Positions 36,089 to 58,003 of a stretch of 64,000 nt of DNA are shown in pieces. Both the position numbers and the translations under genes were made by a program. Under the pieces are notes generated by a model that searched no databases, was not told the DNA's origin, and worked only from the letters and a program-made list of their open reading frames with translations. This DNA is from Candidatus Binatia bacterium (lineage in GTDB: Bacteria > Desulfobacterota > Binatia > Bin18): positions 100,525 through 164,524 of the forward strand of contig CAXXHG010000047.1 in NCBI GenBank assembly GCA_963666315.2, read 5' to 3'. Numbering within the stretch: the stretch's first letter is position 1; the number at the start of each line of letters is the position of its first letter.

Positions 36089-36120
36089 TCTCTTTATACC
36101 GAAACGAAAGGAGGCTGAGG

Positions 36121-36426: not shown

Positions 36427-36458
36427 CAGGAGCAGCACAGCCATAAACAGGAGCTTGT

Positions 36459-37067
36459 ATGACCATGATTCCCCAAGGCGGCCCGATCCATCGATTCATT
36501 TTGCAGACCTTTGCAACAACGGGCCAGGCGCCGACCCTCGAAGCTATTCAGGCCCGGTTTGATTTAGCCAGCATAGACGAAGCTGACGCACGCCTCAGAG
36601 ACCTCGAAGAACGGGGCTGTATTCACCGCACAGCGGGTGACTGCCTGGTGACGCATGCCTATCCGTTTTCCAATGAGCCCACACCGCACCGCGTCTCCTT
36701 GGCCGATGGCCCACAGGTGTATGCTATGTGTGCAATCGATGCCCTAGGCATGCCGTTTATGCTCAAACGAGATGCGCAGATTCATTCCCTCTGCACCCAG
36801 TGTCAGGGCGAGGTGACGGTCCACATTCAGCATGAGCAGGTCATACAGCACAGCCCCGTAGGTCTGGTGGTCTGGTTTCCGACCGTGCAAGGCTCGTGTG
36901 TGGCCGCAACGGATTTATGTCCCTCGGTTAATTTTTTTTGCTCGGCCACACACCTCGACCAATGGTGTGCCGCCCATCGTCAGAACCAGGGCGAGCAAAT
37001 GAGCTTGGAGCTGGCAGTCGCCGGCGGACGCAACACTTTTGAGCCGCTGCTGCACGACGCGGCATGA
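36459..37067 (+). CDS. merB: Organomercurial lyase MerB-like protein
   Basis: N-terminal wHTH-like segment, AYPFS..PTPHRV, YAMCAIDALG (Cys96/Asp99 equivalents), LCPSVNFFCS (Cys159 equivalent). Confidence 0.8.
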   Translation: MTMIPQGGPIHRFILQTFATTGQAPTLEAIQARFDLASIDEADARLRDLEERGCIHRTAGDCLVTHAYPFSNEPTPHRVSLADGPQVYAMCAIDALGMPFMLKRDAQIHSLCTQCQGEVTVHIQHEQVIQHSPVGLVVWFPTVQGSCVAATDLCPSVNFFCSATHLDQWCAAHRQNQGEQMSLELAVAGGRNTFEPLLHDAA

Positions 37068-37080
37068 ACGGATACGAACT

Positions 37081-37440
37081 ATGGTACGTGGAGAAAAACT
37101 GCCCATGCAGAAAGGATTTCTGAGCACGCTCGGCTCGCTCATCCCGTCTTTTTTGGTGAGTACCTGCTGTCTTGGTCCCACTCTGTATGTGTTGTTCGGG
37201 GTGAGTGTGGGCGGGCTGAGTGTGTTTGCTCCGCTCGAACCCTACCGACCGGTGTTCATGCTCGGAGCCGTGGTGTTACTGGGTTATGCGTTTTATCATC
37301 TCTACGTGCGGCTGCCGACATTTGAATGTGTCGAGGACGGTCGCTCCCCACTCAAAACACAGCGTTTTTTGTTTTGGATGGCGAGCGTGTTGTTTATGCT
37401 TGCGGCCTTATACCCGGTGGTGCTACCACATTTCTTGTGA
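37081..37440 (+). CDS. merT: MerT family mercuric transporter
   Basis: STCCLGP, LEPYRPVF, three TM segments. Confidence 0.85.
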   Translation: MVRGEKLPMQKGFLSTLGSLIPSFLVSTCCLGPTLYVLFGVSVGGLSVFAPLEPYRPVFMLGAVVLLGYAFYHLYVRLPTFECVEDGRSPLKTQRFLFWMASVLFMLAALYPVVLPHFL

Positions 37441-39060: not shown

Positions 39061-39427
39061 GAAGCCTTCATTTCCGATTAGCCGTACCCAATTGCCCACT
39101 ATGGCTCTTTTGAGCGATCGGCGTAAAGCGTCGACTTGATTTTACTGTGGATTTTGTTCTGAGGCAGGGGACGGTTTTAGACTGTTTTGAGCAGTTGGGT
39201 GCGAGACGGAATAACCCTTGTGTCTTATGACGTGAACAGTAAATGGTTTTTTGGCAGAGAAAAAGTTGATAAGGGTCAGAGGAAAGGAGGGTGATCTATG
39301 GGAGCACTGACCCCGCCGATTTTCTTATTGAAGTCTTAGATCGAACTCACGTGAGATGACAACACGTGTTGCCCGTATAGTGCTGGGCTTCAATCTATTG
39401 CGATAAGAAGGACAGGAGAAATTCAGT

Positions 39428-40653: not shown

Positions 40654-41088
40654 ATGCTGACAACGACACAACCTATGTTCCGTACTGTCTGCACCTGCTT
40701 GCTCCTCCTTCTGCATCTATTTGCGGGAGCGGGGATGGCCCAGGGGGCAGTCATCTGCGTTGCGCGGGATGGTCACTTTGCCATAGAGAACGCCCACCCG
40801 AATACGGGCTGTGTAACAGTCCAAAAGGACTCCCGTCCTGCACCGCTTGCCTCTGCGCTTGAAAATCCTGCCCGCCGACCTTGTCGGGATACCCCGATTC
40901 TTGGAGTTGGCTCACACTTCACTATTCCCTCGAATGTAGAACTGGACTCCCTAGCTTTCCAACTGCTTACCATTTCCTGTGCGCCTATCGTGACGGGCCG
41001 CTGTCCGCGTCTTGTCCGTTCGCCCGCCACTCGCCTTGGGCTACGCTCCCTCCACGACTCATTGCGTAGCGTTATTCTCCTCGTCTAA
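40654..41088 (+). CDS. Small exported Cys/His-containing protein, first gene of a metal-efflux operon (candidate leader)
   Basis: Hydrophobic N-terminus, VICVARDGHFAIENAH, PCRD, ends LRSVILLV. Confidence 0.65.
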   Translation: MLTTTQPMFRTVCTCLLLLLHLFAGAGMAQGAVICVARDGHFAIENAHPNTGCVTVQKDSRPAPLASALENPARRPCRDTPILGVGSHFTIPSNVELDSLAFQLLTISCAPIVTGRCPRLVRSPATRLGLRSLHDSLRSVILLV

Positions 41089-41218
41089 AGATCTGTCGTC
41101 TTATTGCAGCTTGCTGCTGAGGTTGCGCTGAGAGCGGTTGCGTAGGATATTCGTGCGCCCGCGCGACTATCATTTTCTGTGCCTAGACCCTGCCTGGATG
41201 ATCGACTGGATGACGGAT

Positions 41219-42643
41219 ATGTTACACATTCTCACCGACCTCACTCGACGTTCCACCCGCTATGGCAATATCGGGCTCGGCCTGTGTTTACTGCTTGGGC
41301 TTCCGAGTTGCAGCCTGATGCCCGTTGCAGACAGTACCCTTGAGCCGCGCCGCTTAGGCCGCGAACTTCAGACCTATCACATACCTGCCGAATTTTCCGA
41401 ATCTGGTCCAGACGAACACGCCGCCCTCACGTTTACCCAACCCACTGGCCTACTCACGGTGCCGACTGCCCTGGCCGCCGCCTTACTCAACAGCCCTACC
41501 CTGGCCGCGTTTTCCTGGGAGGTGCGTACGCGTGAAGCCCGCGCGCTTCAAGCCGGCCTGCGTCCGAATCCTGAAGTCGGTTTTGAAGTCGAAGAATTTG
41601 GTGGGAGCGGGGGCCGCACCGCGTTTGATAGCTCAGAAACTACTTTTCTGCTCGGCCAACTGTTGGAGCTCGGCGGCAAGCGGGCCAAACGCCAGCGGCT
41701 GGCGACGTTGGAACGGGATTTAGCCGCCTGGGATTACGAGACCCGCCGGCTGGACGTGCTCACCACCGTTGCCAAAGTCTTTGTCGTAACACTCACCGCC
41801 CAGGAGCGGGTCAGCCTGGAAGAAGAACACGTACAACTGGCGCAAGAAGTCCTTCAAACCGTAGCCCGGCAAGTCAAAGCCGGGGCCGTGTCACCAGTAG
41901 AAGAAATCCGTGCCCAGGTGGCGTTAGCGAGCAGTCGAGTTGAACTCTCGCAACGAAAACGGGAACAGACGGCCGCCCAGCTCCAGCTTGCCGCGACCTG
42001 GGGCAGCACGGCGGTCACCTTCTCTGCCGTCAGCGGTGACTTGGAGACCGTCGTCCCGCCCCCATCCGCTAACGACCTGCTGCCACATCTCATCCACAAT
42101 CCTGACATTGCTCGTTGGAGCGTTGAAAAAGAACAGCGCCACGCCGCTCTTGAACTGGAACAGGCACGCCAGATCCCAAACGTCGAGGTCGGCGCGGGCG
42201 TGCGCTATTTCAACGCGGACACCAGCGCCGCCTTAGTCTTTGAGACCCGCATGCCGCTCATGCTGTTTAACCGGAATCAAGGCGGCATTCAGGAAGCTCA
42301 CGCCCGCTTAGCGAAGGCCGAGGCTGAACAGCGGGCGGCACAAGTACAGACCCGGGCCACATTGGCCGCTGCGCATCAGGCCCTCGTATCTGCCTTTGAG
42401 CAGGTCAGCGCGCTACGAGACAGCATTATCCCCCAAGCCCAATCCGCTTTTGTAGGGGTCAGCCTAGCCTACCAGCGCGGACGCTTGCGCTACTTGGACG
42501 TATTAGACGCTCGGCGCACGTTGTTTACACTGCGCGGCCAGTATGTTGAGGCATTGGCCAGCTACCATACCGCAGTGGCAGACGTGGAACGCCTCATTGC
42601 TGAGCCGCTGGCTGCACTCGACCATACCGACGGGACACACTGA
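41219..42643 (+). CDS. TolC family outer-membrane protein (CzcC-like); start uncertain
   Basis: LQAGLRPNP, Q.LELGGKR.KR, LFNRNQG.I, Y..GRL.YLDVLDARRTL; lipobox-like LPSC. Confidence 0.92.
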   Translation: MLHILTDLTRRSTRYGNIGLGLCLLLGLPSCSLMPVADSTLEPRRLGRELQTYHIPAEFSESGPDEHAALTFTQPTGLLTVPTALAAALLNSPTLAAFSWEVRTREARALQAGLRPNPEVGFEVEEFGGSGGRTAFDSSETTFLLGQLLELGGKRAKRQRLATLERDLAAWDYETRRLDVLTTVAKVFVVTLTAQERVSLEEEHVQLAQEVLQTVARQVKAGAVSPVEEIRAQVALASSRVELSQRKREQTAAQLQLAATWGSTAVTFSAVSGDLETVVPPPSANDLLPHLIHNPDIARWSVEKEQRHAALELEQARQIPNVEVGAGVRYFNADTSAALVFETRMPLMLFNRNQGGIQEAHARLAKAEAEQRAAQVQTRATLAAAHQALVSAFEQVSALRDSIIPQAQSAFVGVSLAYQRGRLRYLDVLDARRTLFTLRGQYVEALASYHTAVADVERLIAEPLAALDHTDGTH

Positions 42644-42644
42644 C

Positions 42645-43631
42645 ATGAAAATAGACATGAGAAATCGCCAATTCATTCATGTGCTCAGCACTCTCTTGCT
42701 GGCACTCCTGTTTGCCTGTCAGGGAGTAGAAGGCGAAGCGCCACGCAGCCAAGAAGAACAGACAGAAGAGCAGGAGCGCGGATATGAAGTAGGCCAAGCA
42801 AGCCAAAAGGAGAGTGTCCAAATCTCCCCGGAAGAACTCACCGAGTTCGGTATCGAGCTGGCCGTAGCTGGACCTGGAACAATCACACACGTGGTGGAGC
42901 TCCCAGGTGAAGTCCAGCCGAATGAGGACCGCTTAGCCCATATTGTCCCGCGCTTTCCCGGCATTGTGACCGCGGTACACAAACAGACCGGCGACATCGT
43001 TCGTGCCGGCGAGGTCCTGGCGATTGTCGAGAGCAGTGTCAGCCTGGCGCCGTATGAACTCAAAACGCTCACGACTGGCACAGTCATCGAAAAGCATATC
43101 ACCCGCGGGGAAGCCGTGACCCGAGAAAGTCAAGCGTTTGTGATTGCCAACCTGAAGAGCGTGTGGGTCAATCTGAGTGTGTATCAGCGAGACTTATCGG
43201 CGGTACGCGTAGGCCAGTCCGTCACAATCTCTGCCGGCCACGGTCTGCCCGAAGCCACAGGAAAAATCTCTTATGTGACTCCGACAGTCGATGAGGAAAC
43301 GCGTACGGCGACCGCGCGCGTAGTCCTACCCAATACAAAGAAGCGCTGGCGGCCGGGCATGTTTGTCACCGGTCGGGTCATCGTCAAGCGCACGGACGTG
43401 CCGCTCGCGGTTCCCCTAGCGGCTCTGCAGACGCTGGCTGAGCAGACGGTGGTGTTTGTCGAAACGGACGCGAGTTTTCAACCCCGGTCGGTGACGACGG
43501 GAGACGCCGATGACAGCCAGGTCGAAATCCGTGCGGGTCTCGCGCCAGGTGAGCGTTACGTCAGCCGTGGAGGCTTTACGCTCAAAGCGGAACTGTCCCG
43601 TGAGCAGTTTGGGGAAGGCTACGGCCATTAA
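42645..43631 (+). CDS. RND periplasmic adaptor (CzcB-like)
   Basis: Lipoprotein-like LFAC, IVPRFPGIV, VDEETRTATARVVLPN...WRPGMFV, G.FTLKAEL. Confidence 0.92.
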   Translation: MKIDMRNRQFIHVLSTLLLALLFACQGVEGEAPRSQEEQTEEQERGYEVGQASQKESVQISPEELTEFGIELAVAGPGTITHVVELPGEVQPNEDRLAHIVPRFPGIVTAVHKQTGDIVRAGEVLAIVESSVSLAPYELKTLTTGTVIEKHITRGEAVTRESQAFVIANLKSVWVNLSVYQRDLSAVRVGQSVTISAGHGLPEATGKISYVTPTVDEETRTATARVVLPNTKKRWRPGMFVTGRVIVKRTDVPLAVPLAALQTLAEQTVVFVETDASFQPRSVTTGDADDSQVEIRAGLAPGERYVSRGGFTLKAELSREQFGEGYGH

Positions 43632-43643
43632 GAGCGCGCAGTC

Positions 43644-46600
43644 ATGGACCGGATCATTCAGCTCAGCCTCTCAAACCGCTCGCTCATAGCCGTCCTCGGA
43701 GTCTTGTTGACGGTGGCCGGCTATCGCAGCTATGTGCAACTTCCGGTTGATGCCTTTCCGGATGTCTCGCCTAATCTGGTGCAGGTGTTTACCGAGACTG
43801 AGGGCCTTGCGCCCGAGGACGTGGAGCAGTACGTCACCTACCCCATTGAAGCCGTCATGACCGGACTGCCCAACCTGGAGCGAATTCGCTCCGTATCAAA
43901 TTTTGGGCTCTCAGTCGTCAATATCTATTTTGAAGACGGAACAGATATCTATTTTGCCCGCCAAGTGGTGAGTGAACGGCTGCAAGAAGTACGCGAACAG
44001 ATTCCCCCCGGCTTCGGTGACCCACGGCTAGGCCCGATTTCCACCGGTATGGGATTGGTCTTGTTTTACTACTTAGCAGACGAGACCGGTCGGTATTCTC
44101 TGCAAGAGCTGCGCAGCATGCAGGATTGGCTGGTCAAGTTTCATCTGCAAACGGTACCCGGGGTGACTGAAGTGCTCGGCATTGGTGGTTATGAAAAACA
44201 ATTTCAGGTCGCCGTACACCCGGAACTCTTACTGCGCGCCGGGGTCACTATCAGCGGGGTGATTACCAGTATCCAAGAGAATAACCTCAACGTCGGGGCG
44301 CAATTCATCGAGAAGAACGCCGAAGAGTTTGTGGTCCGTTCGGTCGGGCTGGTCGCAAACATTTCCGATCTTGAGAATATCGTCATCAAGGCCAAGGACG
44401 GCACCCCCGTCTTTCTGCGCGAACTCGCAGACATCGCGGTCGGCGGCGCGATTCGACGCGGGGTGCAAACCCGGAACGGTCTCGAAGAAGTCGTCGCCGG
44501 GATGGTGGTCAAGGTCTTTGGAGCCAATTCGTCGACGGTCATCGAACAGGTCGAAGCCAAGATGGCCGAGATTAACCGGATTCTACCGAGTGGAGTCAAA
44601 CTTGTTCCCTATTACGAACAAAAGACCCTCGTAGCGGCGTGTGTGGCCACGGTCACGAATGCGTTGATGCAAGGCATAGGCTTAGTCGTGCTGGTGCTGA
44701 TGGTCTTCATGGGCGGGGTGCGGGCCAGTCTGGTCGTCGCGCTGGCTATTCCGTTCTCGGTCTTCTTTGCCACGCTGTGGATGGGCTATTTCGGTATTTC
44801 AGCCAATCTCATGTCACTGGGTGGGCTGGCCATCGCGATCGGCATGCTGGTCGATGGCACGATAGTCATGGTGGAAAACGTGGACCGGATGCTGCGCGGG
44901 GCCGACCCGGATGAAGCCCGCAGTCAGGTGGTCGCCCGGGCGTGTACGGAAGTCGCCCGGCCGATTGTCTTTGCTATCACGATTATTGTGATTGTCTTTC
45001 TGCCCCTCTTTCTGCTGCAAGGGGTGGAGGGCAAAACATTTCGGCCGCTGGCCTACACCGTGGCACTCGCCATGGGCGGCTCGCTCGTCTTTGCGATCTT
45101 TCTGGCTCCGGTCCTGGCCGTCACCGTCATGCGCCGGCCACAGCGCGTCCGTGCAGACCCTGTCTCATCAGAAGGACTGATCGTGCGGAGCCTCATCCGT
45201 CTCTACCGGCCTGTGGTGGTGCTGTTTGTTCGGTGGCGCGTGATGGCAGTCCTCAGCGCGCTTCTTTTGGTCGTACTTGGCGGCACGGTTTTTTCCTATC
45301 TGGGCTCAGAGTTCACCCCGCGTCTGCAGGAAGGCACTATCGTGCTGCGGCTCACTATGGCCGCCTCGATTTCGCTCCAAGAGAGTCAACGCGTCACGAT
45401 GATAGTCGAGCGGCGGCTCATGCAGATTCCGGAAATCGCTGGGGTAGTGACGCGCATAGGCCGGGGTGAAATCGGCGCGCATACCGACCCGATTAATAAT
45501 GCCGAGATGTATATTCTCTTGCAGCCTCAAGAAGAATGGCGCACGGCGCAAAACCAAGAGCAGCTCGAAGGCGTCATCCGTACTGCGTTGGGCCGCATTC
45601 CTGGCGTGCTGACGAATTTTACCCAGCCCATCGCCATGACCATAGACGAACTCTTAGAAGGCGTACGGGCGGAGCTGGCGATTAAACTCTTTGGCGATGA
45701 TCTCGGGGTTCTACTCGAAAAGGGTAATGAGATTGCCGCCGTGACGCAGCGTATCCGAGGCGCAACAGACGTGCAGGTAGACCAAGTCTCAGGTACACCC
45801 CAGCTCGTCATCCGCGTCAATCGGCAAGCGGTGGCTCGGTATGGGATGAATGTCGCGGACGTGCAACACACCATTAGTGCCGCAGTCGGCGGTGAAGTCG
45901 CGGGGCAGATTTTCGAGGGTATCCGCCGCTTTCCGATCCTAGTGCGGTTTGCTCCGGAATATCGGAGCACGCCCCGCGCAATCGGCAATATTCTCATTCC
46001 TGGTCCTCACCACGTGCGCGTGCCGCTGTCCGAGCTGGCGACGATTAAAGAAGTGGTCGGCCCGCGCCAAATCACGCGCGAAAATAATCAGCGCTTCCTG
46101 ACCATTCAGTGCAATGTGGTCGGGCGCGATATCGGGTCGTTTGTCCAGGAAGCCCGAGCGGCCATTGACTCGCAGGTGGCCCTCCCACCGGGCTATCTCG
46201 TCACTTGGGGCGGGCAGTTTCGCTTGCAAGAGGAAGCCAATAGACGCCTGGCTATCGTGATTCCCATTACTTTGATTATTGTTTTTTTGCTGCTGTTCTC
46301 CAGCTTCCAGTCGCTCAGCAATGCGCTGCTCATTCTGCTGAACATTCCGCTTGCCCTTGTCGGCGGCGGGGTCGCATTATGGCTGACGGACCAGAACCTG
46401 TCCGTGCCAGCCTCGGTCGGCTTTATTGCACTGTTCGGCATTGCCTTAGAGAACGGCATGGTGTTAGTGACCTATCTCAATCAACTGATGCGTGCAGGGA
46501 TCCCAGCCGATGAGGCCGCCGTACGGGGCGCGTGTTTACGCTTCCGGCCGGTACTGATGACTGCCGTCACGACCGCCTTGGGACTGATACCCTTGCTCAT

Positions 46601-46742
46601 CTCGCACAGCACGGGCAGTGAGGTGCAGCGCCCGCTGGCAACGGTGGTGGTCGGCGGACTGGTTTCTTCGACGGCGTTAACCCTCCTGATCCTGCCGGCC
46701 TTATATGCCTGGATTGAGAACCGACGGACAGTCCCCGCCTAG
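43644..46742 (+). CDS. Heavy-metal efflux RND permease (CzcA/CusA family)
   Basis: LPVDAFPDV, GLAPEDVEQ, ANLMSLGGLAIAIGMLVDG.IVMVEN, GSEVQRPLATVV.GGL. Confidence 0.95.
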   Translation: MDRIIQLSLSNRSLIAVLGVLLTVAGYRSYVQLPVDAFPDVSPNLVQVFTETEGLAPEDVEQYVTYPIEAVMTGLPNLERIRSVSNFGLSVVNIYFEDGTDIYFARQVVSERLQEVREQIPPGFGDPRLGPISTGMGLVLFYYLADETGRYSLQELRSMQDWLVKFHLQTVPGVTEVLGIGGYEKQFQVAVHPELLLRAGVTISGVITSIQENNLNVGAQFIEKNAEEFVVRSVGLVANISDLENIVIKAKDGTPVFLRELADIAVGGAIRRGVQTRNGLEEVVAGMVVKVFGANSSTVIEQVEAKMAEINRILPSGVKLVPYYEQKTLVAACVATVTNALMQGIGLVVLVLMVFMGGVRASLVVALAIPFSVFFATLWMGYFGISANLMSLGGLAIAIGMLVDGTIVMVENVDRMLRGADPDEARSQVVARACTEVARPIVFAITIIVIVFLPLFLLQGVEGKTFRPLAYTVALAMGGSLVFAIFLAPVLAVTVMRRPQRVRADPVSSEGLIVRSLIRLYRPVVVLFVRWRVMAVLSALLLVVLGGTVFSYLGSEFTPRLQEGTIVLRLTMAASISLQESQRVTMIVERRLMQIPEIAGVVTRIGRGEIGAHTDPINNAEMYILLQPQEEWRTAQNQEQLEGVIRTALGRIPGVLTNFTQPIAMTIDELLEGVRAELAIKLFGDDLGVLLEKGNEIAAVTQRIRGATDVQVDQVSGTPQLVIRVNRQAVARYGMNVADVQHTISAAVGGEVAGQIFEGIRRFPILVRFAPEYRSTPRAIGNILIPGPHHVRVPLSELATIKEVVGPRQITRENNQRFLTIQCNVVGRDIGSFVQEARAAIDSQVALPPGYLVTWGGQFRLQEEANRRLAIVIPITLIIVFLLLFSSFQSLSNALLILLNIPLALVGGGVALWLTDQNLSVPASVGFIALFGIALENGMVLVTYLNQLMRAGIPADEAAVRGACLRFRPVLMTAVTTALGLIPLLISHSTGSEVQRPLATVVVGGLVSSTALTLLILPALYAWIENRRTVPA

Positions 46743-46743
46743 G

Positions 46744-46821
46744 AGATGGAGAGTCTCCCCGAATGCCATCCATCCAGCAGGCGGGCAGGCGAGGGGGCCA
46801 GAAGCAGAGACTCTTCCATCT
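46744..46821 (+). other. Long intergenic inverted repeat between the two RND operons
   Basis: AGATGGAGAGTCTC (46744-57) pairs with GAGACTCTTCCATCT (46807-21) with one bulge. Confidence 0.5.
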
Positions 46822-46829
46822 GCTGAGAG

Positions 46830-47309
46830 ATGCATGATATGCTGCATACATTTCTCATGCTGAAAACGCCCTCTCCCATACTACGCACGACCATGCTGGC
46901 TGTGCTCCTGCCAGTCTTGTTGCTGTTGCCGACCTTCCACACGCACCCTGACCATCGGCATACACACGGACACGCTAGCACGCACGGCCACTCGGCTGTC
47001 ATTCATGCCGATTTCTTCGCCATCTCAGTCCACAACGCGCATGATGCGCATGACCAGGGTCACGGCGTCCCAACTGAAAACTCCTCGCAAACTGATTTTC
47101 GCATAAGCCTGTTCACCCTGCTCCCGCGAAGTCTTGTGCTGCTCACTCCCGCGCCCGAATGCGCGTCACTTGCTTTCCTCACCACATTTCTTGTCATCAT
47201 TCCGCTCTCGGTCATCCAGTCGCGGCTGCACTCGTCTAACCATCCACCGCCTGTTCAATCCGTCTCTTTCCCGGCCATTTCTCCCCGTTCCCCGCCCCAC
47301 CTCGTGTAG
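46830..47309 (+). CDS. His-rich exported leader protein ending in a RAPP-like RSPP motif (DUF2946/CruR-like architecture); start uncertain
   Basis: Hydrophobic stretch, HTHPDHRHTHGHASTHGH...HNAHDAHDQGH, C-terminal ISPRSPPHLV*. Confidence 0.7.
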   Translation: MHDMLHTFLMLKTPSPILRTTMLAVLLPVLLLLPTFHTHPDHRHTHGHASTHGHSAVIHADFFAISVHNAHDAHDQGHGVPTENSSQTDFRISLFTLLPRSLVLLTPAPECASLAFLTTFLVIIPLSVIQSRLHSSNHPPPVQSVSFPAISPRSPPHLV

Positions 47310-47417
47310 TTCTCAACGGCTTTTCATTTTTTTCCTTCAATAACGAGACGGTTTCCGCACGGCGTTCTTTCCCTGTGTGTCCAGGAAGCCGTGTATCTAT
47401 TGCGGAGGACCGCGCCC

Positions 47418-48989
47418 ATGTTGCGGAATTACTGTGTGGGCCTCGGTGCGCTGATGTTACTGGCAAGCTGCCAGCTGGGCGATACAGGTCTGCCCCAAGA
47501 CCAGAAAGACCTTGCCCCTGAGCCTCTCAGCATCACCAAGTGGACCACTAAGACCGAACTCTTTGTAGAATTTGCGCCGCTCATAGTTGGCAAAGCAACG
47601 CCTTTTGCGGCGCATCTGACCGACTTGCATACATTTCAGGCTGTCTCTCAGGATGTAGTCATCACGACACTGCAGGGCCAAAACGGCCAAATCATAACCG
47701 TGCGCTCGGAATCGACAACGCCAGGCATCTACCGTCCCGTCCTCACCCCCAAAGAACCCGGCACCTATCGCCTTCTTTTTACGCGGTCTCATCCCGGCAG
47801 TCAGACCATGCTGGATACGATTGACGCGGGGGAAGTGGAAGTTCTGACAGTTGTGGCAACAGACAAAGACCTCCCGAGTCCAGAAAAAGAGCCAGAGGGA
47901 GACGGTATTATCTTTCTCAAGGAGCAGCAGTGGCAGATGGCATTTGCCACACAAGAGGTCAGTGCTCGGGAACTGGAGACCACCCTGCACCTCCACGCAG
48001 AAGTCAAACCCGTAGCCGGTGGAGAGGTCCACGTCACCGCGCCCTTCAGCGGGCGCACCTTGGCCGTCGAGAACGGTGTCCCCACGCCGGGCCAACGTGT
48101 TGAGCAGGGCGAGCCACTCGCGCTGCTGCTCCCCCTGCCAACCAAGAGTCGGGCTGAGCTCGCGTATGACGTGCATGCGACTACGGCTGAACTTGCGGCC
48201 GCTCAGCACGAATTGGCGCGGGTGCAGGACCTGTATGCGAACCGTATTGTTCCGAAACGCCGCTTCGAGCAGGCGCAAAAAAACGTGGCGGTGTTCACGG
48301 CGCGCTTGTCGGCCTCCCGCTCTGAGCTGTCTCTGCTGAATGTAAACCCAGCAGACGCCACGAAAATCCGAAAACGCAGCCCTGAGCACTTTCTTCTGCG
48401 GGCTCCGATGACCGGTACGGTGGTTACGGTCAACCTCACACCGGGCGCACTCATTGAGGCGGGTTATGACCTGTTCACCATTATGAACCTGGAGCAGGTC
48501 TGGATTGAAGGCCGAGTGTTTGAGGCCGACATCTCCAAAGTGCGACACGTTGAGCAGGCCCGATTTAGTGCTCCTGCCCTCAGCATGCCGCTGCTCCTCT
48601 CTCAACCGGATGCGCGGCTGGTCACCATCGGCAGTGTCCTGGACCACCGGACTCGTTCTGTCCCACTTATCCTCGCGGTCAACAATGCGCACAGACGGCT
48701 AAAAATCGGCATGCACGGCGAGCTGAGCGTGCCGACCGGAGAAGTCGTGCACGCTATTGCCATCCCAGCAAATGCCATCGTGTACGACAAAGGGATTCCG
48801 CTTGCTTTTGTCCAAGTAAGCGGAGAGACGTTTGCGCGGCGAGAACTGGAACTTGGCGTACGAAATAACGACTTCGTGCAGGTGCGGGCAGGCCTCGTCG
48901 CGGGCGAACGGGCGGTGACACAAGGCGCGTATCGGGTGCACTTGGCATCCCTCTCAAGCACGCTGCCTGAACATGGGCATGCGCATTAG
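47418..48989 (+). CDS. RND periplasmic adaptor with an N-terminal extra domain
   Basis: Lipobox LASC, T.WT.KTELFVEF..L.VG....FAAHLT, FLKEQQW, C-terminal HGHAH; RBS GGAGG. Confidence 0.92.
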   Translation: MLRNYCVGLGALMLLASCQLGDTGLPQDQKDLAPEPLSITKWTTKTELFVEFAPLIVGKATPFAAHLTDLHTFQAVSQDVVITTLQGQNGQIITVRSESTTPGIYRPVLTPKEPGTYRLLFTRSHPGSQTMLDTIDAGEVEVLTVVATDKDLPSPEKEPEGDGIIFLKEQQWQMAFATQEVSARELETTLHLHAEVKPVAGGEVHVTAPFSGRTLAVENGVPTPGQRVEQGEPLALLLPLPTKSRAELAYDVHATTAELAAAQHELARVQDLYANRIVPKRRFEQAQKNVAVFTARLSASRSELSLLNVNPADATKIRKRSPEHFLLRAPMTGTVVTVNLTPGALIEAGYDLFTIMNLEQVWIEGRVFEADISKVRHVEQARFSAPALSMPLLLSQPDARLVTIGSVLDHRTRSVPLILAVNNAHRRLKIGMHGELSVPTGEVVHAIAIPANAIVYDKGIPLAFVQVSGETFARRELELGVRNNDFVQVRAGLVAGERAVTQGAYRVHLASLSSTLPEHGHAH

Positions 48990-49004: not shown

Positions 49005-52000
49005 ATGAATCGTCTGATTAGCTGGTCGTTAGCCAATCGCGCCATTGTCCTGGCGCTCGCGCTTGCAGTCTTACTCGGCGGGACGGTTGTTGCCGTCCGC
49101 ATGCCGGTCGATGTCTTTCCAGACCTGACCGCTCCCACAGTAACGGTCATTACTGAAGCCCACGGGATGGCACCGGAAGAAGTTGAGACCTTGGTCACTT
49201 TTCCCCTGGAAGCGGCGGTGAATGGGGCTCCCGGCGTGCGGCGCGTCCGCTCGTCTTCTGCCACCGGTATTTCTGTGGTGTGGGTCGAGTTTGCCTGGGG
49301 CACAGATGTGTATCAGGCCCGGCAAGTGGTGAATGAAAAACTGCAACTTGCTCGTGCCGTTCTCCCGCCAGAAGTCGCATCGCCCGTTCTTGCTCCCATC
49401 TCCTCCATTATGGGCGAAATCATGCTGATTAGCCTCACCAGTGAGACCCACTCACCGCTAGAACTCCGCTCTACAGCGGATTGGGTTATCCGCCGGCGTC
49501 TGCTGTCCGTCCCGGGCGTATCCCAAGTCATCCCCATCGGGGGAGGCGTCAAACAGTATCAGGTCCTCCTGTCTCCAGAGCGGATGGCTGCGTATGGCGT
49601 GAGCCTCACCGAAGTCACCGAAGCGGTCCACACCACGAATCAGAACACCTCAGCCGGCTTCTACGTTGAGGGTAGCCAAGAATACCTCATTCATGGCGTT
49701 AGCCGTGTCCGTCAGCCAGCGGAGATAGCGCAAACCGTAGTCGCCCTGCACGACGAGCAGTTCGTGTTTGTGCATCAGGTCGCCGATGTGCAAACCGGTC
49801 CTGCGCCCACACGAGGCGCAGGCGCAGCCCAAGGCAAGCCCGCCGTGATTCTCAGTCTTCAGAAACAGCCGGGCGCAAACACGTTGACGTTGACCCACGC
49901 ACTGGACCAGACGCTTGCGGCCATTCAACGCACCCTGCCAGCAGGAATGACCATCAATGCCCATATCTTCCGCCAGGCCGATTTTATCGCAGTGGCCATT
50001 GAAAACGTGGTCGATGCCCTGCGAGAGGGGGGGCTGGTGGTGGTGGGCATTCTACTCCTGTTCCTCATGAATATTCGCGCCACACTGATTACGCTGGTGG
50101 CTATTCCGCTCTCCTTGCTCGTCGCCGTGCTCTCTTTGCAACTCTTGGGCGGCACGATGAACACCATGACCCTGGGCGGCATGGCCATTGCCATTGGCGC
50201 ATTGGTCGATGACGCCATTATTGATGTCGAAAACGTCTTGCGGCGACTCAGGGAGGATGCGGCGTTACCGCAGGCAGAGCGCGCCAATCCGATCACGGTG
50301 ACGCTTAAGGCCTCACTGGAGATTCGTCCGTCTATCACGTTCGCAACCTTTATCATTGCGCTCGTCTTTATCCCGCTCTTCTTTCTCAGCGGTGTCGAAG
50401 GACGATTACTCATGCCCTTGGGCCTAGCCTATATTGTGGCGCTTTTTGCCTCGCTCGTGGTTGCTATCTCGGTCACCCCCGTGCTGTGCTCGTTGGTGCT
50501 TCCTCACTCAAAGGGAGTCGGAGTGAGCACAGACAATCCGCTGGTCCGTCACTTACAGCACGCCTACCACAAGACGCTCGGATACGTGCTTCCCCGCCCT
50601 GGTCTCGTTATCACCACGTCTGCTGTGCTGTTTGCGGGAACGCTGGCTCTCATCCCGCTGCTCGGTCGGTCGTTTCTTCCCGAGTTTAATGAAGGTACGC
50701 TCACGATTAATACTGTCACTCTGCCAGGGACCGCCCTCGCTGAGTCTGACCGGCTGGGTCAGATGGTCGAAAACATTCTCCTGTCGTTTCCCGAGGTGAA
50801 AACGACGGCTCGGAGGACCGGGCGGGCGGAGCTGGACGAGCACACCCAGGGGGTTGAAGCCTCAGAAATCGATGTCGGACTTCAGATGCAAGAGCGTTCG
50901 AAAGCGGAGTTCCTCGACGCCCTACGCCGAGCGCTCACCATTGTGCCAGGGATGAACATCACTATTGGGCAACCGATATCCCACCGCATTGACCACATGT
51001 TGTCTGGCACGCGGGCCAATATCGCGGTGAAAATCTTTGGTGATGATTTACAGCGCCTACGCCGTCTGGGCCTTGCCGTTCGGGATGCGATGGCGCAAGT
51101 TCCCGGCGTCGTGGACCTGGCCGTTGAGCAACAAACCGACCTGCCGATTCTCCACCTGCAACTCAACCGGGAACAGATTGCCCGGGTAGGGCTCACGGTG
51201 GGGAACGTAGCGGAGGCGTTAGAGACGGCGTTCTGGGGGAAGACCGTCTCGCGCGTATTGGAAGGCCAGCGGAGTTTTGACCTGGTCGTCCGCTACGAAG
51301 ATGCGACCCGGCGCGACCTGACCGCGATTCGCTCCACGCTGATTGATACGCCGCGCGGGGGAAAGGTCCCGCTGGGTCTGCTGGCCACCGTGAGCCGTGC
51401 CCTCGGCCCAAACAACATCGGACGCGAAAATGTGCAGCGCCGCATTGTGGTGAGTTGCAATGTGGCCGGACGCGCCCTCCAGGACGTCGTGCACGAGATG
51501 CAGCAACAGGTGACAACACGCGTGTCCCTGCCCCAAGGGTACTACATCGTCTACGGCGGTCAGTTTGAAAGCGCCCAGGAGGCGTCGCGCACTATCGGCG
51601 TGTTAAGTTTTTTCGTGCTGGGGGCCATTATTCTCCTACTCACCACGGCACTGCGGTCTTTGCGCGACGCCCTTATTATCCTGGTTAATCTCCCCTTGGC
51701 GCTAATTGGCGGAGTCATTGGGGTGTTTGTGTCTGGCGGGATACTGAGTGTCGCTTCGCTGGTGGGACTGATCACGCTCTTTGGCATCGCCACCAGAAAC
51801 GGCATCATGCTGGTCACGCATATTCGTCATCTAATGGAGGAAGAAGGGGAGCGGTTCCGAGCAGCAGTGGAAAGAGGCGCGTTGGAGCGCCTCTCGCCCA
51901 TTCTCATGACCGCGCTCTCATCAGGGCTTGCGCTCCTGCCGCTTGTGTTTCGGGCCGGCCACCCGGGGAGCGAGATACTCACGCCGATGGCTATCGTCAT

Positions 52001-52103
52001 TTTGTGTGGCCTGGTGACTTCAACCGTACTGAACATAGTTGTTGTTCCCGCCTTATACCTGAAGTTTGGTCGGTCATTGACTGAGCAGGGAGGAGAGCGA
52101 TGA
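49005..52103 (+). CDS. Heavy-metal efflux RND permease (CzcA/NrsA-like)
   Basis: MPVDVFPDL.AP.V, GMAPEEVE, NTMTLGG.AIAIG.LVDDAI.DVEN, ARRTGRAELDEH, ISHRIDHMLSG. Confidence 0.95.
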   Translation: MNRLISWSLANRAIVLALALAVLLGGTVVAVRMPVDVFPDLTAPTVTVITEAHGMAPEEVETLVTFPLEAAVNGAPGVRRVRSSSATGISVVWVEFAWGTDVYQARQVVNEKLQLARAVLPPEVASPVLAPISSIMGEIMLISLTSETHSPLELRSTADWVIRRRLLSVPGVSQVIPIGGGVKQYQVLLSPERMAAYGVSLTEVTEAVHTTNQNTSAGFYVEGSQEYLIHGVSRVRQPAEIAQTVVALHDEQFVFVHQVADVQTGPAPTRGAGAAQGKPAVILSLQKQPGANTLTLTHALDQTLAAIQRTLPAGMTINAHIFRQADFIAVAIENVVDALREGGLVVVGILLLFLMNIRATLITLVAIPLSLLVAVLSLQLLGGTMNTMTLGGMAIAIGALVDDAIIDVENVLRRLREDAALPQAERANPITVTLKASLEIRPSITFATFIIALVFIPLFFLSGVEGRLLMPLGLAYIVALFASLVVAISVTPVLCSLVLPHSKGVGVSTDNPLVRHLQHAYHKTLGYVLPRPGLVITTSAVLFAGTLALIPLLGRSFLPEFNEGTLTINTVTLPGTALAESDRLGQMVENILLSFPEVKTTARRTGRAELDEHTQGVEASEIDVGLQMQERSKAEFLDALRRALTIVPGMNITIGQPISHRIDHMLSGTRANIAVKIFGDDLQRLRRLGLAVRDAMAQVPGVVDLAVEQQTDLPILHLQLNREQIARVGLTVGNVAEALETAFWGKTVSRVLEGQRSFDLVVRYEDATRRDLTAIRSTLIDTPRGGKVPLGLLATVSRALGPNNIGRENVQRRIVVSCNVAGRALQDVVHEMQQQVTTRVSLPQGYYIVYGGQFESAQEASRTIGVLSFFVLGAIILLLTTALRSLRDALIILVNLPLALIGGVIGVFVSGGILSVASLVGLITLFGIATRNGIMLVTHIRHLMEEEGERFRAAVERGALERLSPILMTALSSGLALLPLVFRAGHPGSEILTPMAIVILCGLVTSTVLNIVVVPALYLKFGRSLTEQGGER

Positions 52104-53416
52104 TGCGGAAACGCTCTGTATGGTTTCCGACCGTGTGGGTGTTCCTTCTGGTCGGGCAGCTTGGGCAAATTGGGGAGGCGAGGGCGGAGGATGCGACCTC
52201 CGCCTTTCACGTAGATTTGCCGACCGCTGTGACGCGGGCCTTGCAGGAGAATCCCGATGTGCAGGCGAAGCGCCACGCACTCGGGCTGGCAAAGGGTCGT
52301 GTCCAGTACGCCGAGTTGTTGTTTCAAACAAATCCCCTTATCAGCATTGAGGCCGATTACCGTAACCGGCGGTTTCGTGAATCGACCGGAAGGTCAACCA
52401 CTGATGCCACAGTCCTGCTCTTGCAAGAAGTCGAAATTGCCGGGCAGCGCGGACACCGACGGCGAGCAGCCGCCACACATCTGGCATATGCCGAGCGGGT
52501 AATTGTGAATGCGGAACGACTACTCCAACTGGCAGTCATGCGCGCTTTTTACGAGCTGCTGGCGGCGCAGGAGCGCATCCAAGCGCAACAGCACATCGTG
52601 CAGACTCGCGAAGCACTGCTGCGAGCGGGCCATGAACGCTTTGCGGGGGAAGATATTTCCGTGCTGGAGTTCGACACCTTGCAACTCGATACAGACCAGG
52701 CACACACCCGTCTGCTCACCAGAAAACAGGAACGCGTGCTTGCGGAAAAACAGCTGCTGTTACTCCTTGGCCCCGGTGTAGGGAAACCGCTCGTTGCGGT
52801 CGGTGACCTCTTCAAGGTCTCTGCGCACTACTCCCTACCAGAACCCCTTCGGCTACGAGAGGAACTCACGGCCTGCGCCCTGGAGCATCGGCCCGACTAC
52901 CAAGCCGCGCGTCTGAAAGTGGCAACCCGGGAAGCAGAACTCCGCCTCGCGCAGGCGAACAGAATACCGAATATTTCCCTTGGTCCGATGTATAAGCTCG
53001 ACGATGAAGACCAGGTGGTAGGGGGAGCGCTCACAATTCCGCTGCCCCTCTTTAACCGCAATACGCACGAAATAACGGCCGCGACGGCAAATGTGGAGAT
53101 TGCGCGCCGAGAGCTGCAAGCCCGAGCTCTCGCCGTACGGCACGAGGTTGTTGCCGCCTCTGAACGCCTTCGGCTCGCACTGCAGCAACGCGCTGTGTAC
53201 GGAAAAAACTACCGTGATAAACTCGCGCAGAGTGAGAACTTCACGCAGCAAGCCTACGAGGCAGGAGAGGTGAGTATTTTTGAGTTTAGTGTGGCACTAG
53301 AACGGCTCACTCAGGCCCGTTCGCGGGGCCTGGACGCAGCCCTCAGTGCGCTCCAAGCCGGTGCAGAGTTAGCCGCACAGCTGGCCTTCCGCTGCCTCGA
53401 TACAGTCCACAAATGA
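52100..53416 (+). CDS. TolC family outer-membrane protein
   Basis: Signal peptide, EIAGQRG.R, A...RPD, IPLPLFNRN, AYEAGE. Confidence 0.9.
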   Translation: MMRKRSVWFPTVWVFLLVGQLGQIGEARAEDATSAFHVDLPTAVTRALQENPDVQAKRHALGLAKGRVQYAELLFQTNPLISIEADYRNRRFRESTGRSTTDATVLLLQEVEIAGQRGHRRRAAATHLAYAERVIVNAERLLQLAVMRAFYELLAAQERIQAQQHIVQTREALLRAGHERFAGEDISVLEFDTLQLDTDQAHTRLLTRKQERVLAEKQLLLLLGPGVGKPLVAVGDLFKVSAHYSLPEPLRLREELTACALEHRPDYQAARLKVATREAELRLAQANRIPNISLGPMYKLDDEDQVVGGALTIPLPLFNRNTHEITAATANVEIARRELQARALAVRHEVVAASERLRLALQQRAVYGKNYRDKLAQSENFTQQAYEAGEVSIFEFSVALERLTQARSRGLDAALSALQAGAELAAQLAFRCLDTVHK

Positions 53417-53562: not shown

Positions 53563-54267
53563 GTGGAACCACTCTCGATCCTGATCATTGGGTTTCTTCT
53601 TGGCGTAAAACACGCCTTTGATGCGGACTACCTCGTGGCAGTCTCTACGCTGCTGACGCACAACCGATCCGCGTGGCATACCGTACGGCTCGGGCTGTGG
53701 TGGGGCGTCGGGCACACCCTGACCTTAGTGCTTGTCGGGCTTACTGTCCTGACTCTCAAGCTGGATATTCCGCCTGCAGTCAGCTCGTCGATGGAATGCC
53801 TGGCCGGTGCCATGTTGATGGTATTAGGGCTGACCACCTTGTTCGACTGTTGGCGCCGCCGCTTGCACGTCCACCGCCACGTTCACGCTGAGACTATGCA
53901 CCTCCATTTTCATACCCATGCGACACATGCCGGACATCAGCACGGGCATCGTGTCCCGACCGGTTGCAAGCCCATCGTGCTAGGCATGGTGCATGGCCTC
54001 GCCGGGAGTGCGGCTCTTATGCTGCTGGTTGTCGCAAGCAGCCCGTCTATCATGACCGGACTGGTGTATGTGCTTACTTTTGGGTGTGGTTCCATACTCG
54101 GTATGGGAGCCGTCAGTGTACTGATGAGTGCCTTCTTCTCACTCGCAGCACCCAGGACCCAAGGGCTCAATCCGTCTGTCCACGTTGCCGTAGGCGGTGC
54201 GAGTCTGGCGATGGGGCTCTGGATTATTTTCGAAGTCGGTTTTGTAAACGGCTTATTTCTGACGTAA
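53563..54267 (+). CDS. NiCoT/UreH-like nickel/cobalt permease
   Basis: G.KHAFDAD(Y)L.AV, WG.GH, His-rich loop HVHRHVH...H.HFHTH, G.VHGLAGSA. Confidence 0.85.
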   Translation: MEPLSILIIGFLLGVKHAFDADYLVAVSTLLTHNRSAWHTVRLGLWWGVGHTLTLVLVGLTVLTLKLDIPPAVSSSMECLAGAMLMVLGLTTLFDCWRRRLHVHRHVHAETMHLHFHTHATHAGHQHGHRVPTGCKPIVLGMVHGLAGSAALMLLVVASSPSIMTGLVYVLTFGCGSILGMGAVSVLMSAFFSLAAPRTQGLNPSVHVAVGGASLAMGLWIIFEVGFVNGLFLT

Positions 54268-55811: not shown

Positions 55812-56251
55812 TTAATCTGCATCTCTCAGACTTTTTAAAACGTCGAGAAAAGCCCGTGGTGTGACGACTCGAATATCTTCATATTCCTTCAGATCCAGGA
55901 GATTCCTATCGCCACTCACAACAAACTCAGCCTTTCCGTCTAAGGCTGCTGCGATATACGTATCATCATCTGGATCAGCTCTGACGACACGATGTCGGAT
56001 CGCCCCCTCTACTGGGATAGCGATCAATCCAATCGCGGCGACCCACGCCTCAAGTTCGTGGTGTGATGCGGAAATGTACTTCTGGACGGCGGATACGCTA
56101 AACTCCGCCGCAGCTCCTCAAGAATTGAATCCGACACCACGAGTTCAAACGCTTGCTCTTCAATACACAAACGCAGGAGCCGCCCCGGCGGTCCATTCGG
56201 CCGTATGACCGCACTCACGAAAACGTTGGCATCAAGGACAGCGCGGAGCAC
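55812..56251 (-). pseudogene. PIN-domain toxin (type II TA), 1-bp frameshift near 56091
   Basis: LRAVLDANVFVSA...ILEEL.R.L.YP in one frame; AVQKY...DPDDD.YIAAALDGKAEFVVSGDRNLL in another. Confidence 0.85.
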
Positions 56252-56254
56252 GGC

Positions 56255-56527
56255 TTACTTACGGCGAGGCTTGCGTGCTTTGTGCTTTGCCTCATCAGCA
56301 ATGCGGTCAGCCTCACGTTGAGACAACAGCCCCGGCTGCAGATCAAGCGTTTGCAGTAACTGCCGACGAGCCGCTTGCTGCATCTGCTCTAATTTCTCAA
56401 TCGGAACCAGTGCGGCGAGGGGCTTTCCCTTGCGCTCTATAATGAATTGATCTTGCCGCAGAGCAACACGGTTGAGCAAGTCACCAAGTTTTCGCCGTAC
56501 TTCCAGAGTTGATACCCGCTCCATCAT
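56255..56527 (-). CDS. Phd/YefM family antitoxin
   Basis: VSTLEVRRKLGDLLNRV....FIIERKGKPLAALVP; directly upstream of the PIN gene. Confidence 0.9.
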   Translation of the reverse strand: MMERVSTLEVRRKLGDLLNRVALRQDQFIIERKGKPLAALVPIEKLEQMQQAARRQLLQTLDLQPGLLSQREADRIADEAKHKARKPRRK

Positions 56528-56705
56528 AACTTCCTTCAAATCCCTCAACTATGATACTTCGTATAGTTCTATAATCAATCACACCCACAAGCCAAGTAGC
56601 CATGTAACCTGGATGGAACGGAGTGGAATCCCGGGAATCCGGGCGCACGCCTCAGGGTGCAGCAGCGTGGGCAAGCCGACGACAAGTCCTAGAAACGCCT
56701 ACTGC

Positions 56706-56840: not shown

Positions 56841-56952
56841 CCCTCCAATCCACCTCTCAACGCCTGCCCTAGAGTAGTTCTCTCATAGCCCCAGTTACTC
56901 CGCCTGCTCGTCCACAATCACTAACCGCATCGCCTCCGCGCTCGCTCGTACG

Positions 56953-57899: not shown

Positions 57900-58003
57900 C
57901 CCTTCCAATTCCCCCAAATCCCGGCCCAAAATCTCGACTTTCAAACAGCAGCCTACTCGGTATAAAAATTTCTCGGCAAAAGTCTACACCTTTTTTCGGC
58001 ATT

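Follow-up and report, generated by a model that had tools for sequence, protein, structure and literature searches.

A histidine-rich, cysteine-free open reading frame ending in RSPP is a candidate ribosome-arrest leader for metal efflux genes in Candidatus Binatia

The characterized metal-sensing arrest leaders, CruR and CutF, all answer to copper through cysteines. CruR (Bp2923) of Bordetella pertussis is described as a DUF2946 protein that bears an export signal and carries CxxC, in which three residues separate RAPP from the C-terminus and the 45-residue spacing from CxxC to RAPP is conserved; over 95% of its family carry an export signal, its transcript has a C>G Rho-loading (rut) region, the spacer that leads to the next gene is 162 nt long, and the ribosome stalled at RAPP shields the transcript from Rho until copper relieves the stall (PMC9426467). 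Arrest of CruR at RAPP is reported to have been demonstrated in vitro, with toeprints in which the P site holds the third residue of the motif and the A site the fourth (PMC12992588). CutF of Rhodobacter capsulatus is reported to be exported co-translationally and to stall at a C-terminal PPP, a stall that periplasmic copper enhances and that melts a stem-loop over cutO's Shine-Dalgarno (SD) sequence, inducing the copper oxidase (PMC9973294; bioRxiv 10.1101/2025.02.05.636593). A published list of 5,334 CutF-like proteins includes some whose genes lie upstream of those for OEP, HlyD_D23 and ACR_tran, cites SilD, CusD, CopL and CzcI by name, and contains two His-only clusters (14 and 17) that adjoin HupE/UreJ genes and for which Ni/Co sensing was suggested (PMC9973294). 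Here we describe a 150-residue open reading frame (ORF), hereafter the leader, in a 64,000-nt stretch of DNA from Candidatus Binatia bacterium (assembly GCA_963666315.2, contig CAXXHG010000047.1, positions 100,525 to 164,524 of the forward strand), hereafter the window. With moderate confidence, and judging from its sequence, we take it to be a CruR/CutF-type leader that is translated and that regulates, in cis, the adjoining adaptor and resistance-nodulation-division (RND) metal efflux genes.

A preliminary description of the window had picked out an ORF of about 150 residues with a signal-like hydrophobic stretch and a His tract, ending in RSPP three codons before the stop, and all of these features are present. 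The start at ATG 46857 was chosen from the homologues and from a DNA alignment of the upstream region; it gives 150 residues containing 18 His, most of them within residues 37-78. Residues 21-35 are hydrophobic (mean Kyte-Doolittle value 2.27), and K and R precede the stretch. The parts of the leader are as follows.

46830..47309, + strand: longest ORF, 159 aa (residue numbers follow this version)
46857..47309, + strand: leader ORF from the conserved ATG CTG AAA start (MLK...), 150 aa
46806..46856, + strand: conserved upstream block, promoter-like by position, with invariant columns in the eight-locus alignment
46884..46931, + strand: residues 19-34 (R followed by LAVLLPVLLLLP), candidate signal anchor or export signal at the N-terminus
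46932..47063, + strand: His block, putative metal-binding sensor, residues 35-78, pattern xxHxHP..HxH..HxH..(V/I)xHADF..H
47064..47237, + strand: variable linker, residues 79-136, kept in length but not in sequence
47241..47252, + strand: H-P-P-P, second conserved proline element, residues 138-141, 12-15 residues before the candidate arrest Arg
47280..47297, + strand: S-P-R-S-P-P, candidate ribosome-arrest motif, residues 151-156 (RSPP at 47286-47297)
47298..47309, + strand: leader tail, three variable, mostly non-polar codons (H-L-V in the window), then TAG

The leader belongs to a real gene family under selection at the protein level. A word-indexed search returned 34 relatives at 33-99% identity, an exhaustive search of 1.84 billion cluster representatives returned 35 at E<=0.001, and a profile search returned 101; the pooled set came to 129 retrieved proteins, fragments included, from which alignment A5 retains 94 of 107 full-length members, 13 fragments or proteins with long N-terminal extensions having been dropped. 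P0054 and P0066, from the representative search, were rejected as relatives, both being repetitive sequences. The family has at least 115 members, most of them 144-152 aa long. Its DNA context was taken from one scan of 185,579 species genomes, which yielded seven loci (L001-L007) with the window as the eighth, and covers two clades of one class (Candidatus Binatia). By the Nei-Gojobori method, with the window set against five related loci, the ratio of nonsynonymous to synonymous substitution (dN/dS) is 0.26-0.44 over the whole ORF, divided into 0.06-0.19 for residues 10-62, 0.46-0.89 for residues 63-136 and 0.07-0.37 for residues 137-159. The homologues carry zero precomputed Pfam domains and no name in the sources other than "hypothetical protein"; scanning the leader, and sets of 38 and 94 members, against Pfam and NCBIfam gave nothing above cutoff, and an ESM Atlas search for look-alikes returned unnamed hypothetical clusters, along with DUF6769 in 13% of one cluster's members. 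A tblastn search with the leader against 72,556 plasmids gave zero matches.

The C-terminal motif is kept in sequence and in position. R[S/A/G]PP occurs in 115 of the 129 pooled proteins (107 RSPP, seven RAPP, one RGPP). Of these 115, 102 have exactly three residues between motif and stop and seven have five; in the other six the tail is longer or shorter, as is typical of calls with read-through or a frameshift. The 14 proteins that lack the motif comprise truncated pieces, two repetitive false matches and a single frameshift-like product. Comparison of homologues had been proposed in the preliminary description as a check on the arrest idea, and the constancy of this position agrees with it, as does the divergence of the linker, whose identity is 0.36-0.41 against 0.82 for xSPRSPP and whose dN/dS is 0.46-0.89 against 0.06-0.19 for the N-terminal part. 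Invariant residues in A5 are P34, H37, H39, H59, D61, R153, P155 and P156; L31-L33, H52, F62, P140, P141, P152 and S154 are at least 90% conserved (P152 and S154 each 93%), and the S of RSPP is replaced only by A or G, in distant members, which yields the arrest motifs RAPP and RGPP. Since the codons of R153 (CGT/CGC), S154 (TCC/TCT) and P155 (CCG/CCC/CCT) vary synonymously across loci, the constraint is on the amino acids. The codon of P156, the A-site codon of the proposed stall, is CCC and that of S151 is TCT in all eight loci, while neighboring codons vary synonymously, which in this small sample may reflect a tRNA- or RNA-level constraint. Across six frames of the 64-kb window R[SAG]PP occurs only 11 times, and the leader holds the sole occurrence in a conserved ORF. 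Elsewhere RSPP is reported to have emerged from random arrest screens as arrest-permissive and to be among the tetrapeptides most under-represented in bacterial proteomes (PMC7897499, PMC12992588).

The sensor region and its distance from the motif are also conserved. Within the His block, H44, H52, H54, F62 and H71 are 84-99% conserved across the 94 sequences, and Cys is absent from 59 of these (median Cys count 0). The H-P-P-P element is conserved at 85% (H138), 90% (P140) and 96% (P141), and its PP stands 13 residues before the arrest R in 80 of 107 members. Mean column identity in A5 is 0.82 for x-S-P-R-S-P-P, 0.68 for H-P-P-P, 0.62 for the His block and about 0.36-0.48 for the linker. In 60 of 94 members H-x-D-F and R-x-P-P stand 93 residues apart, and in 81 of 94 the distance is 91-94; the linker thus holds its length as its sequence drifts. 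The export signal was judged from hydropathy, from a helix predicted by AlphaFold2 at residues 16-32 (predicted local distance difference test, pLDDT, 77-90) and from the conserved LLLP, in which L31-L33 are 95-96% conserved and P34 is invariant. In the same prediction, run on A5, residues 35-61 of the His block form four short strands (pLDDT 72-78), and residues 81-130 of the linker fall below a pLDDT of 50, indicating predicted disorder; the predicted template modeling score (pTM) of the whole protein is 0.29.

These observations bear on a different reading, in which the gene product is a structural, His-rich metal-binding accessory (a chaperone or buffer, membrane-anchored or periplasmic) with no regulatory stalling, and in which the C-terminal SPRSPP serves the mature protein or has no role. 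Purifying selection on the His block (dN/dS 0.06-0.19), the predicted N-terminal helix with a small His-lined beta-meander (pLDDT 72-90), and the constant company of an adaptor-RND gene pair would all suit such a protein, and CutF itself was initially conjectured to be a copper chaperone (PMC9426467). However, over half of the protein is predicted to be disordered, the linker evolves near neutrality and nevertheless keeps its length, and the start codon is preceded by no SD sequence. Furthermore, an invariant R-x-P-P three codons from the stop, with only A or G substitutions, is unexplained in a mature protein, and RSPP is reported as one of the tetrapeptides that bacterial proteomes avoid most (PMC12992588). 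We therefore consider a purely structural accessory improbable, though the leader may have a dual role, structural and regulatory.

The preliminary description had placed the ORF 108 bp upstream of adaptor, RND, TolC and NiCoT genes. The distance is exact in the window, where the adaptor ATG (47418) lies 108 nt past the leader stop, and the adaptor, the RND permease of the heavy-metal efflux (HME) type and the outer-membrane factor are as described; the fourth gene is only NicO-like, scoring below the Pfam cutoff in the window and 27.8 bits in the copy at L002. The genes that follow the leader are these.

47418..48989, + strand: periplasmic adaptor (membrane fusion protein, MFP) lipoprotein, 523 aa, HlyD_D23, TIGR01730 at 120.6 bits against a cutoff of 94.9, lipobox LLASC
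49005..52103, + strand: HME-RND permease, ACR_tran at 5.6e-263, TIGR00914 CusA/CzcA at 795.8 bits against a cutoff of 701.45
52100..53416, + strand: outer-membrane factor (OEP), PF02321 at 3.6e-32
53563..54267, + strand: membrane protein of NicO/DsbD_2-like type with a His-rich loop, NicO score 23.3 bits (cutoff 27.7)

The order leader, spacer of 103-111 nt and adaptor gene, all on the same strand, recurs in eight of eight loci, and an HME-RND gene follows the adaptor in all six loci that reach that far (L001 and L006 end inside the adaptor gene); conservation of the downstream genes, likewise part of the proposed check, is thus found as well. The OEP and NicO-like genes stand behind the RND gene only in the window and L002, two of the six loci extending that far. 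In L003, L004, L005 and L007 the leader-adaptor-RND cassette lies between an FAA hydrolase gene and other genes, with acyl-CoA dehydrogenase genes further upstream in L003 and L004, so that in four loci the cassette sits among unrelated metabolic genes. Among the scanned neighbors of the cassette in L003 and L004 there were zero matches to regulators, and the ORFs scanned in the window, 110 aa or longer and lying from 36 to 64 kb, gave zero matches to two-component systems or metalloregulators, in agreement with an earlier remark that no two-component system sits beside this operon. Titles of six of the seven related loci read Candidatus Binatia or Binatota. The seventh, L002 (CAZBUD010000049.1), is titled uncultured Enterobacteriaceae but has in common with the window and the Binatia MAGs the complete two-operon synteny and a leader 74% identical; its title is probably a binning or labeling error.

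Upstream of the leader, the neighboring gene is an RND gene in one clade and an FAA hydrolase gene in the other, and yet about 50 nt before ATG CTG AAA are kept in both. This block (46806-46856) is promoter-like in position and may serve as a promoter. No SD sequence lies ahead of the leader start codon in the upstream alignment of the eight loci, and a consensus scan found zero sigma-70 promoters and zero intrinsic terminators.

Stalling, export, metal binding, regulatory sign and the output step are all things that we infer for this leader, along the following lines. The N-terminal hydrophobic segment would take the nascent chain to the Sec translocon, and about 120 residues would have emerged when the ribosome reaches S-P-R-S-P-P, which would put the His block (H37, H39, H59, D61 and others) already outside the membrane. 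The ribosome would stall there; by analogy with CruR, the P site is expected to hold Pro155 (47292-47294) and the A site Pro156 (47295-47297), and H-P-P-P, about 14 residues upstream, would lie deeper in the exit tunnel. The duration of the stall would be set by occupancy of the His block by a divalent metal. Because the His block lies some 75-118 residues from the arrest site, beside the signal anchor, the geometry favors metal sensing outside the cytoplasmic membrane, unlike sensing at the tunnel exit as in CruR. A lasting stall would switch the downstream genes on, as in all characterized relatives, and since the target is an exporter, metal would have to prolong the stall, the sign of CutF and not that of CruR. 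The output would take one or both of two forms: (a) the stalled ribosome would cover the C-rich, G-poor RNA of the leader's 3' end and prevent Rho termination at a hairpin in the spacer, or (b) it would hold CU-rich anti-SD segments and so free the GGAGG of the adaptor gene. A stricter version, in which the leader is the sole regulator of the HME-RND pump, a Cys-free His sensor that reads periplasmic Ni, Co, Zn or Cd by way of the translocon during the pause on RSPP and whose longer stall blocks Rho termination at the spacer hairpin, is put forward tentatively, as a proposal that we hold to be possible and somewhat doubtful.

RNA features relevant to these two outputs are located as follows.

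47137..47334, + strand: C-rich, G-poor stretch (C>G bubble), candidate Rho-loading (rut) region, covering the leader 3' end and the first 25 nt of the spacer
47350..47390, + strand: conserved spacer stem-loop (RNAalifold), ending 13 nt before the SD sequence
47404..47420, + strand: SD sequence GGAGG (47404-47408) and adaptor ATG (47418)

The C-rich, G-poor character ascribed to the leader's 3' half and the spacer in the preliminary description is borne out by measurement. GC skew runs from -0.28 to -0.46 across 46850-47374, and in 78-nt windows the C/G ratio is 2.3-4.0 over 47137-47334 (at least the 99.4th percentile of the window), with a peak of 4.0 at 47226-47303 that falls in the top 0.1% of 127,846 such windows from the two strands of the 64 kb. 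In each of the eight loci the leader's GC skew lies between -0.26 and -0.34, while most neighboring genes are near 0 and two stand at -0.07 and -0.17. A conserved C>G bubble with a conserved hairpin downstream of it would suit Rho-dependent termination as described for cruR, and the composition is compatible with Rho involvement and a rut function. Other stretches with a 78-nt C/G ratio of at least 3 were found at 56481-56610, 56841-56926 and 57892-58043 (+ strand) and at 35898-35977 and 39136-39312 (- strand), where the ORFs have neither His-rich nor PP-terminal features.

The spacer stem-loop may be an RNA polymerase pause or attenuator element. In the eight-sequence alignment it has 13 pairs, with 91-98% of cells paired, and three pairs changed on both sides between the two clades, a count that represents few independent events; its folding energy lies between -15 and -29 kcal/mol, six of the eight loci having z of at most -2.3, the sequence identity between clades is only 54-61%, and it lacks a terminator-like T run. 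Folded as a single sequence, the window region gives z=-0.98. One could suppose from this that regulation lies with the RNA of the 108-nt spacer, acting as a metal riboswitch or as an attenuator hairpin that binds a protein, and that the ORF provides only the translation that modulates it, with no metal sensing. The kept spacer length (103-111 nt), the compensatory changes in the stem-loop, and the 24 nt from hairpin to adaptor ATG, which are 71-100% identical across loci, would fit such an element. Yet the covariance models of Rfam 15, metal riboswitches included, gave zero matches on either strand of 46700-47500 even at E<=10, conserved internal loops are absent from the hairpin, a simple stem, and protein-level conservation of the His block and of R[SAG]PP would be left unexplained. 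We judge a spacer RNA acting in this way to be very improbable.

For the second output, the sequence GGAGGACCGC before the adaptor ATG is invariant in eight of eight loci, and partition-function folding finds the adaptor SD mostly paired in all eight (probability unpaired 0.01-0.17). RNAalifold pairs UUCUCC (47279-47284, in the Ile-Ser-Pro codons) with the SD (47404-47409). In the second clade the SD partner is an adjacent CUCC-UAU-GGAG mini-hairpin that is absent from the window's clade.

Several points weigh against a CruR/CutF-type leader, and the least secure step is the metal-prolonged stall. Metal-induced folding of an exported domain would normally pull on the nascent chain and release the arrest, which is the wrong sign for an exporter; CutF solves this problem by disulfides, which a Cys-free family cannot form. 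RSPP placed in ApdA and ApdP is reported to be only partially arrest-competent (PMC7897499), and strong selection on the His block fits a mature metal-binding protein equally. At the RNA level, the C-richness of the leader comes largely from its amino-acid composition (His, Pro, Leu, Ser, Thr), and its third-position skew of -0.14 to -0.22 is matched by two neighboring genes. The SD pairs with other partners in other loci, SD accessibility rises only to 0.01-0.24 when the region covered by a Pro155-stalled ribosome is forced open, and the UUCUCC/SD helix, being invariant, carries no covariation signal; with inconsistent partners and so small an effect of the stall, SD masking is possible, and the folding gives it no clear support. 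The family resemblance is also loose. The preliminary description had called the leader CruR-like with His in place of CxxC, and the architecture and the lack of a Cys motif hold. The family is not a member of Pfam DUF2946. Leader protein P0001 gave no match to Pfam DUF2946 (PF11162) even at E<=10, two of 38 members matched at E<=10, and the gathering score of 23.7 was reached by none; one of 94 members came within E<=1 (P0028, 18.5 bits, E=0.0035), with residues 13-147 colinear with profile positions 5-117 of 117, an end-to-end alignment that speaks for the CruR/CutF reading. The family has neither CxxC nor CxxxC, and has the invariant H37, H39, H59 and D61 instead, so the resemblance may be convergent architecture and not homology. 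Finally, stalling, export and metal binding are read here from sequence, in a context of eight loci from two clades of one class.

Which metal such a leader would sense is a separate matter. The His-only chemistry, the NicO-like neighbor and an acidic fourth transmembrane segment (TM4) of the RND permease (VDDAIIDVEN) point to a divalent cation; the narrower assignment to Ni, Co or Zn draws only on His chemistry and the weakly scoring NicO-like neighbor and is tentative. The NicO-like protein has a His-rich loop of about 28 residues, around residues 101-129, which we take to be of the kind known from RcnA-type Ni/Co exporters. Alternatively, a CruR/CutF-type leader might sense copper (or silver) and not Ni, Co or Zn. 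Every class member studied experimentally responds to Cu according to the accounts available (PMC9426467, PMC9973294), His-rich sites bind Cu(II) too, and NCBIfam LpqS, a putative copper-homeostasis lipoprotein, matches weakly in four of 38 members (best E=0.0067). In addition, the TM4 segment AIGALVDDAIIDVEN (AIG...VDDA...DVEN) departs from DFGX3DGAX3VEN, the signature given for the divalent-cation groups HME1/2 (PMC3637150). On the other hand, the leader has no Cys or Met-rich Cu(I) motif, 59 of 94 members lack Cys altogether, and the window and L002 carry the NicO/DsbD_2-like gene with its His-rich loop in the same operon. VDDAIIDVEN also has three acidic residues, unlike the VDAAIIIIEN of a third pump in the window, which we take to be CusA-like. 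His-only CutF-like clusters, moreover, are linked in the published list to Ni/Co genes (PMC9973294). We regard a copper-sensing leader as unlikely.

The remainder of the locus adds several observations. The adaptor (47418-48989) has an N-terminal extension of about 190 aa without an assigned domain and ends in HGHAH. In the second clade the place of OEP behind the RND gene is taken by a conserved ORF, some 110-141 aa long and without a Pfam match, at these positions.

L003, 13252-13677: ORF behind the RND gene
L005, 13348-13677: ORF behind the RND gene
L007, 13252-13674: ORF behind the RND gene

The window contains two further HME-RND systems. The first, an OEP-MFP-RND operon at 41138-46742, is headed by a small ORF (40654-41088, + strand, 144 aa) that is 78-83% identical in L001 (1697-2131) and L002 (1841-2275) and has a signal-like N-terminus and conserved Cys and His, with no C-terminal PP and no Pfam or NCBIfam match. 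This ORF (P0002) was considered as a paralogue of the leader and rejected (hhalign 0.15%); it may be a CzcI-like element, CzcI having been described as CutF-like without the proline motif (PMC9973294). Upstream of the pumps, at 36073-37440 (+ strand), lie a DF-family (seleno)protein-like ORF, a MerB-like organomercurial lyase and a MerT-like transporter, and the MerB-like ORF (36459-37067) has an N-terminal LexA-type DNA-binding domain. The third HME-RND system (58004-63863, - strand) comprises OEP, a CusB-like adaptor and a CusA/CzcA permease scoring 1129.8 bits with the TM4 segment VDAAIIIIEN; its upstream end runs past the window. A PIN_3/PhdYeFM type II toxin-antitoxin pair (56024-56548, - strand) lies between pump operons.

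If the leader does act as proposed, a His-only sensor family before an RND pump would extend the principle of metal-sensing arrest to other metals, to the principal class of metal exporters in Gram-negatives, for which two-component or extracytoplasmic function (ECF) regulators are usually thought necessary, and to a phylum-level lineage known only from metagenomes. Were the sole-regulator proposal true, no earlier example would involve a metal other than copper or an RND exporter, and the sign of a CruR-like circuit would be inverted. The family is clearly delimited and amenable to experiment, and its 150 codons and 108-nt spacer make a compact test system that could address the effect of a ligand outside the membrane on the force felt by a stalled chain, as well as the three-codon distance from motif to stop. 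Unnamed small ORFs of this kind can also mark metal-regulated operons in metagenomes. The open-access literature searched gave nothing on Binatia metal resistance and no described His-rich or RSPP leader before RND genes, though one may be described elsewhere, and the family may already be among the CutF-like proteins of list D in PMC9973294. The preliminary description knew of no characterized case of such a leader governing an exporter, which was overstated: in CutF a copper-enhanced stall turns on a detoxification gene (PMC9973294; bioRxiv 10.1101/2025.02.05.636593), and CutF-like ORFs before RND genes, along with His-only clusters, were cataloged in 2023 (PMC9973294).

Among known systems, the leader resembles CruR in layout, sharing with it a small first-gene ORF with an N-terminal export signal (putative in the leader), R-x-P-P three residues before the stop with a non-polar tail, a ligand motif at a conserved distance from R-x-P-P, poor structure, a C>G-rich 3' region and a long spacer before the transporter gene (162 nt in CruR, 103-111 nt here). 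It differs in that the ligand motif is a His block without Cys and not CxxC, the ligand-to-arrest distance is 93 residues and not 45, the motif is RSPP and not RAPP, the target is an efflux pump and not TonB-dependent uptake, and the family is found in Candidatus Binatia and not Proteobacteria. CutF shares the sign that would be needed here, as reported, in which a metal-bound, exported nascent sensor stalls more and a detoxification gene comes on. The operational definition of CutF-like proteins in PMC9973294 (small size, a signal peptide, PP within the last 15 residues, a same-strand downstream gene) describes the leader as well: its 150 aa are borderline in size, its PP lies 4-5 residues from the end, and its signal is assigned by hydropathy. 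However, CutF is reported to use a PPP sensitive to elongation factor P (EF-P), CxxxC and disulfides, whereas the leader has R[SAG]PP with an upstream HPPP and no Cys; a stem-loop covers the cutO SD, whereas no consistent SD-masking helix is predicted for the leader; and the His-only CutF-like clusters adjoin HupE/UreJ genes in the published list, whereas this family adjoins RND adaptors.

More distant comparisons lead to the same architectural class. ApdA, ApdP, SecM (RAGP) and the RQH family, as described, share a C-terminal R-[AGS]-P-P core after family-specific tunnel residues, an N-terminal localization signal and control in cis of the next gene (PMC7897499, PMC10987492, PMC10951233), but they monitor Sec or YidC, precede secA, secDF or yidC, and have no metal-ligand block. 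SilD of Cupriavidus metallidurans pMOL30 (NC_007971.2, 170023-170418) is likewise small, its N-terminus signal-like and its C-terminal region rich in proline, and lies 72 nt upstream of the HME-RND operon silCBA (the first 50 kb of pMOL30 held nothing relevant); unlike the leader, it is Cys-rich (CQAHC), carries RPPPRP twelve residues from its end, and has the gene order OEP-MFP-RND behind it. SilD was rejected as a homologue of the leader, with no Pfam match and an hhalign probability of 0.2%, and this want of profile similarity suggests that "CutF-like" is an architectural class spanning several sequence families, of which the leader family would be one more. In its predicted architecture the family matches CruR and CutF by every criterion that could be tested without being a DUF2946 member, and its novel part, an expected extension of what is described, is a putative Cys-free, RSPP-bearing leader of the CruR/CutF kind before an HME-RND pump in Candidatus Binatia.

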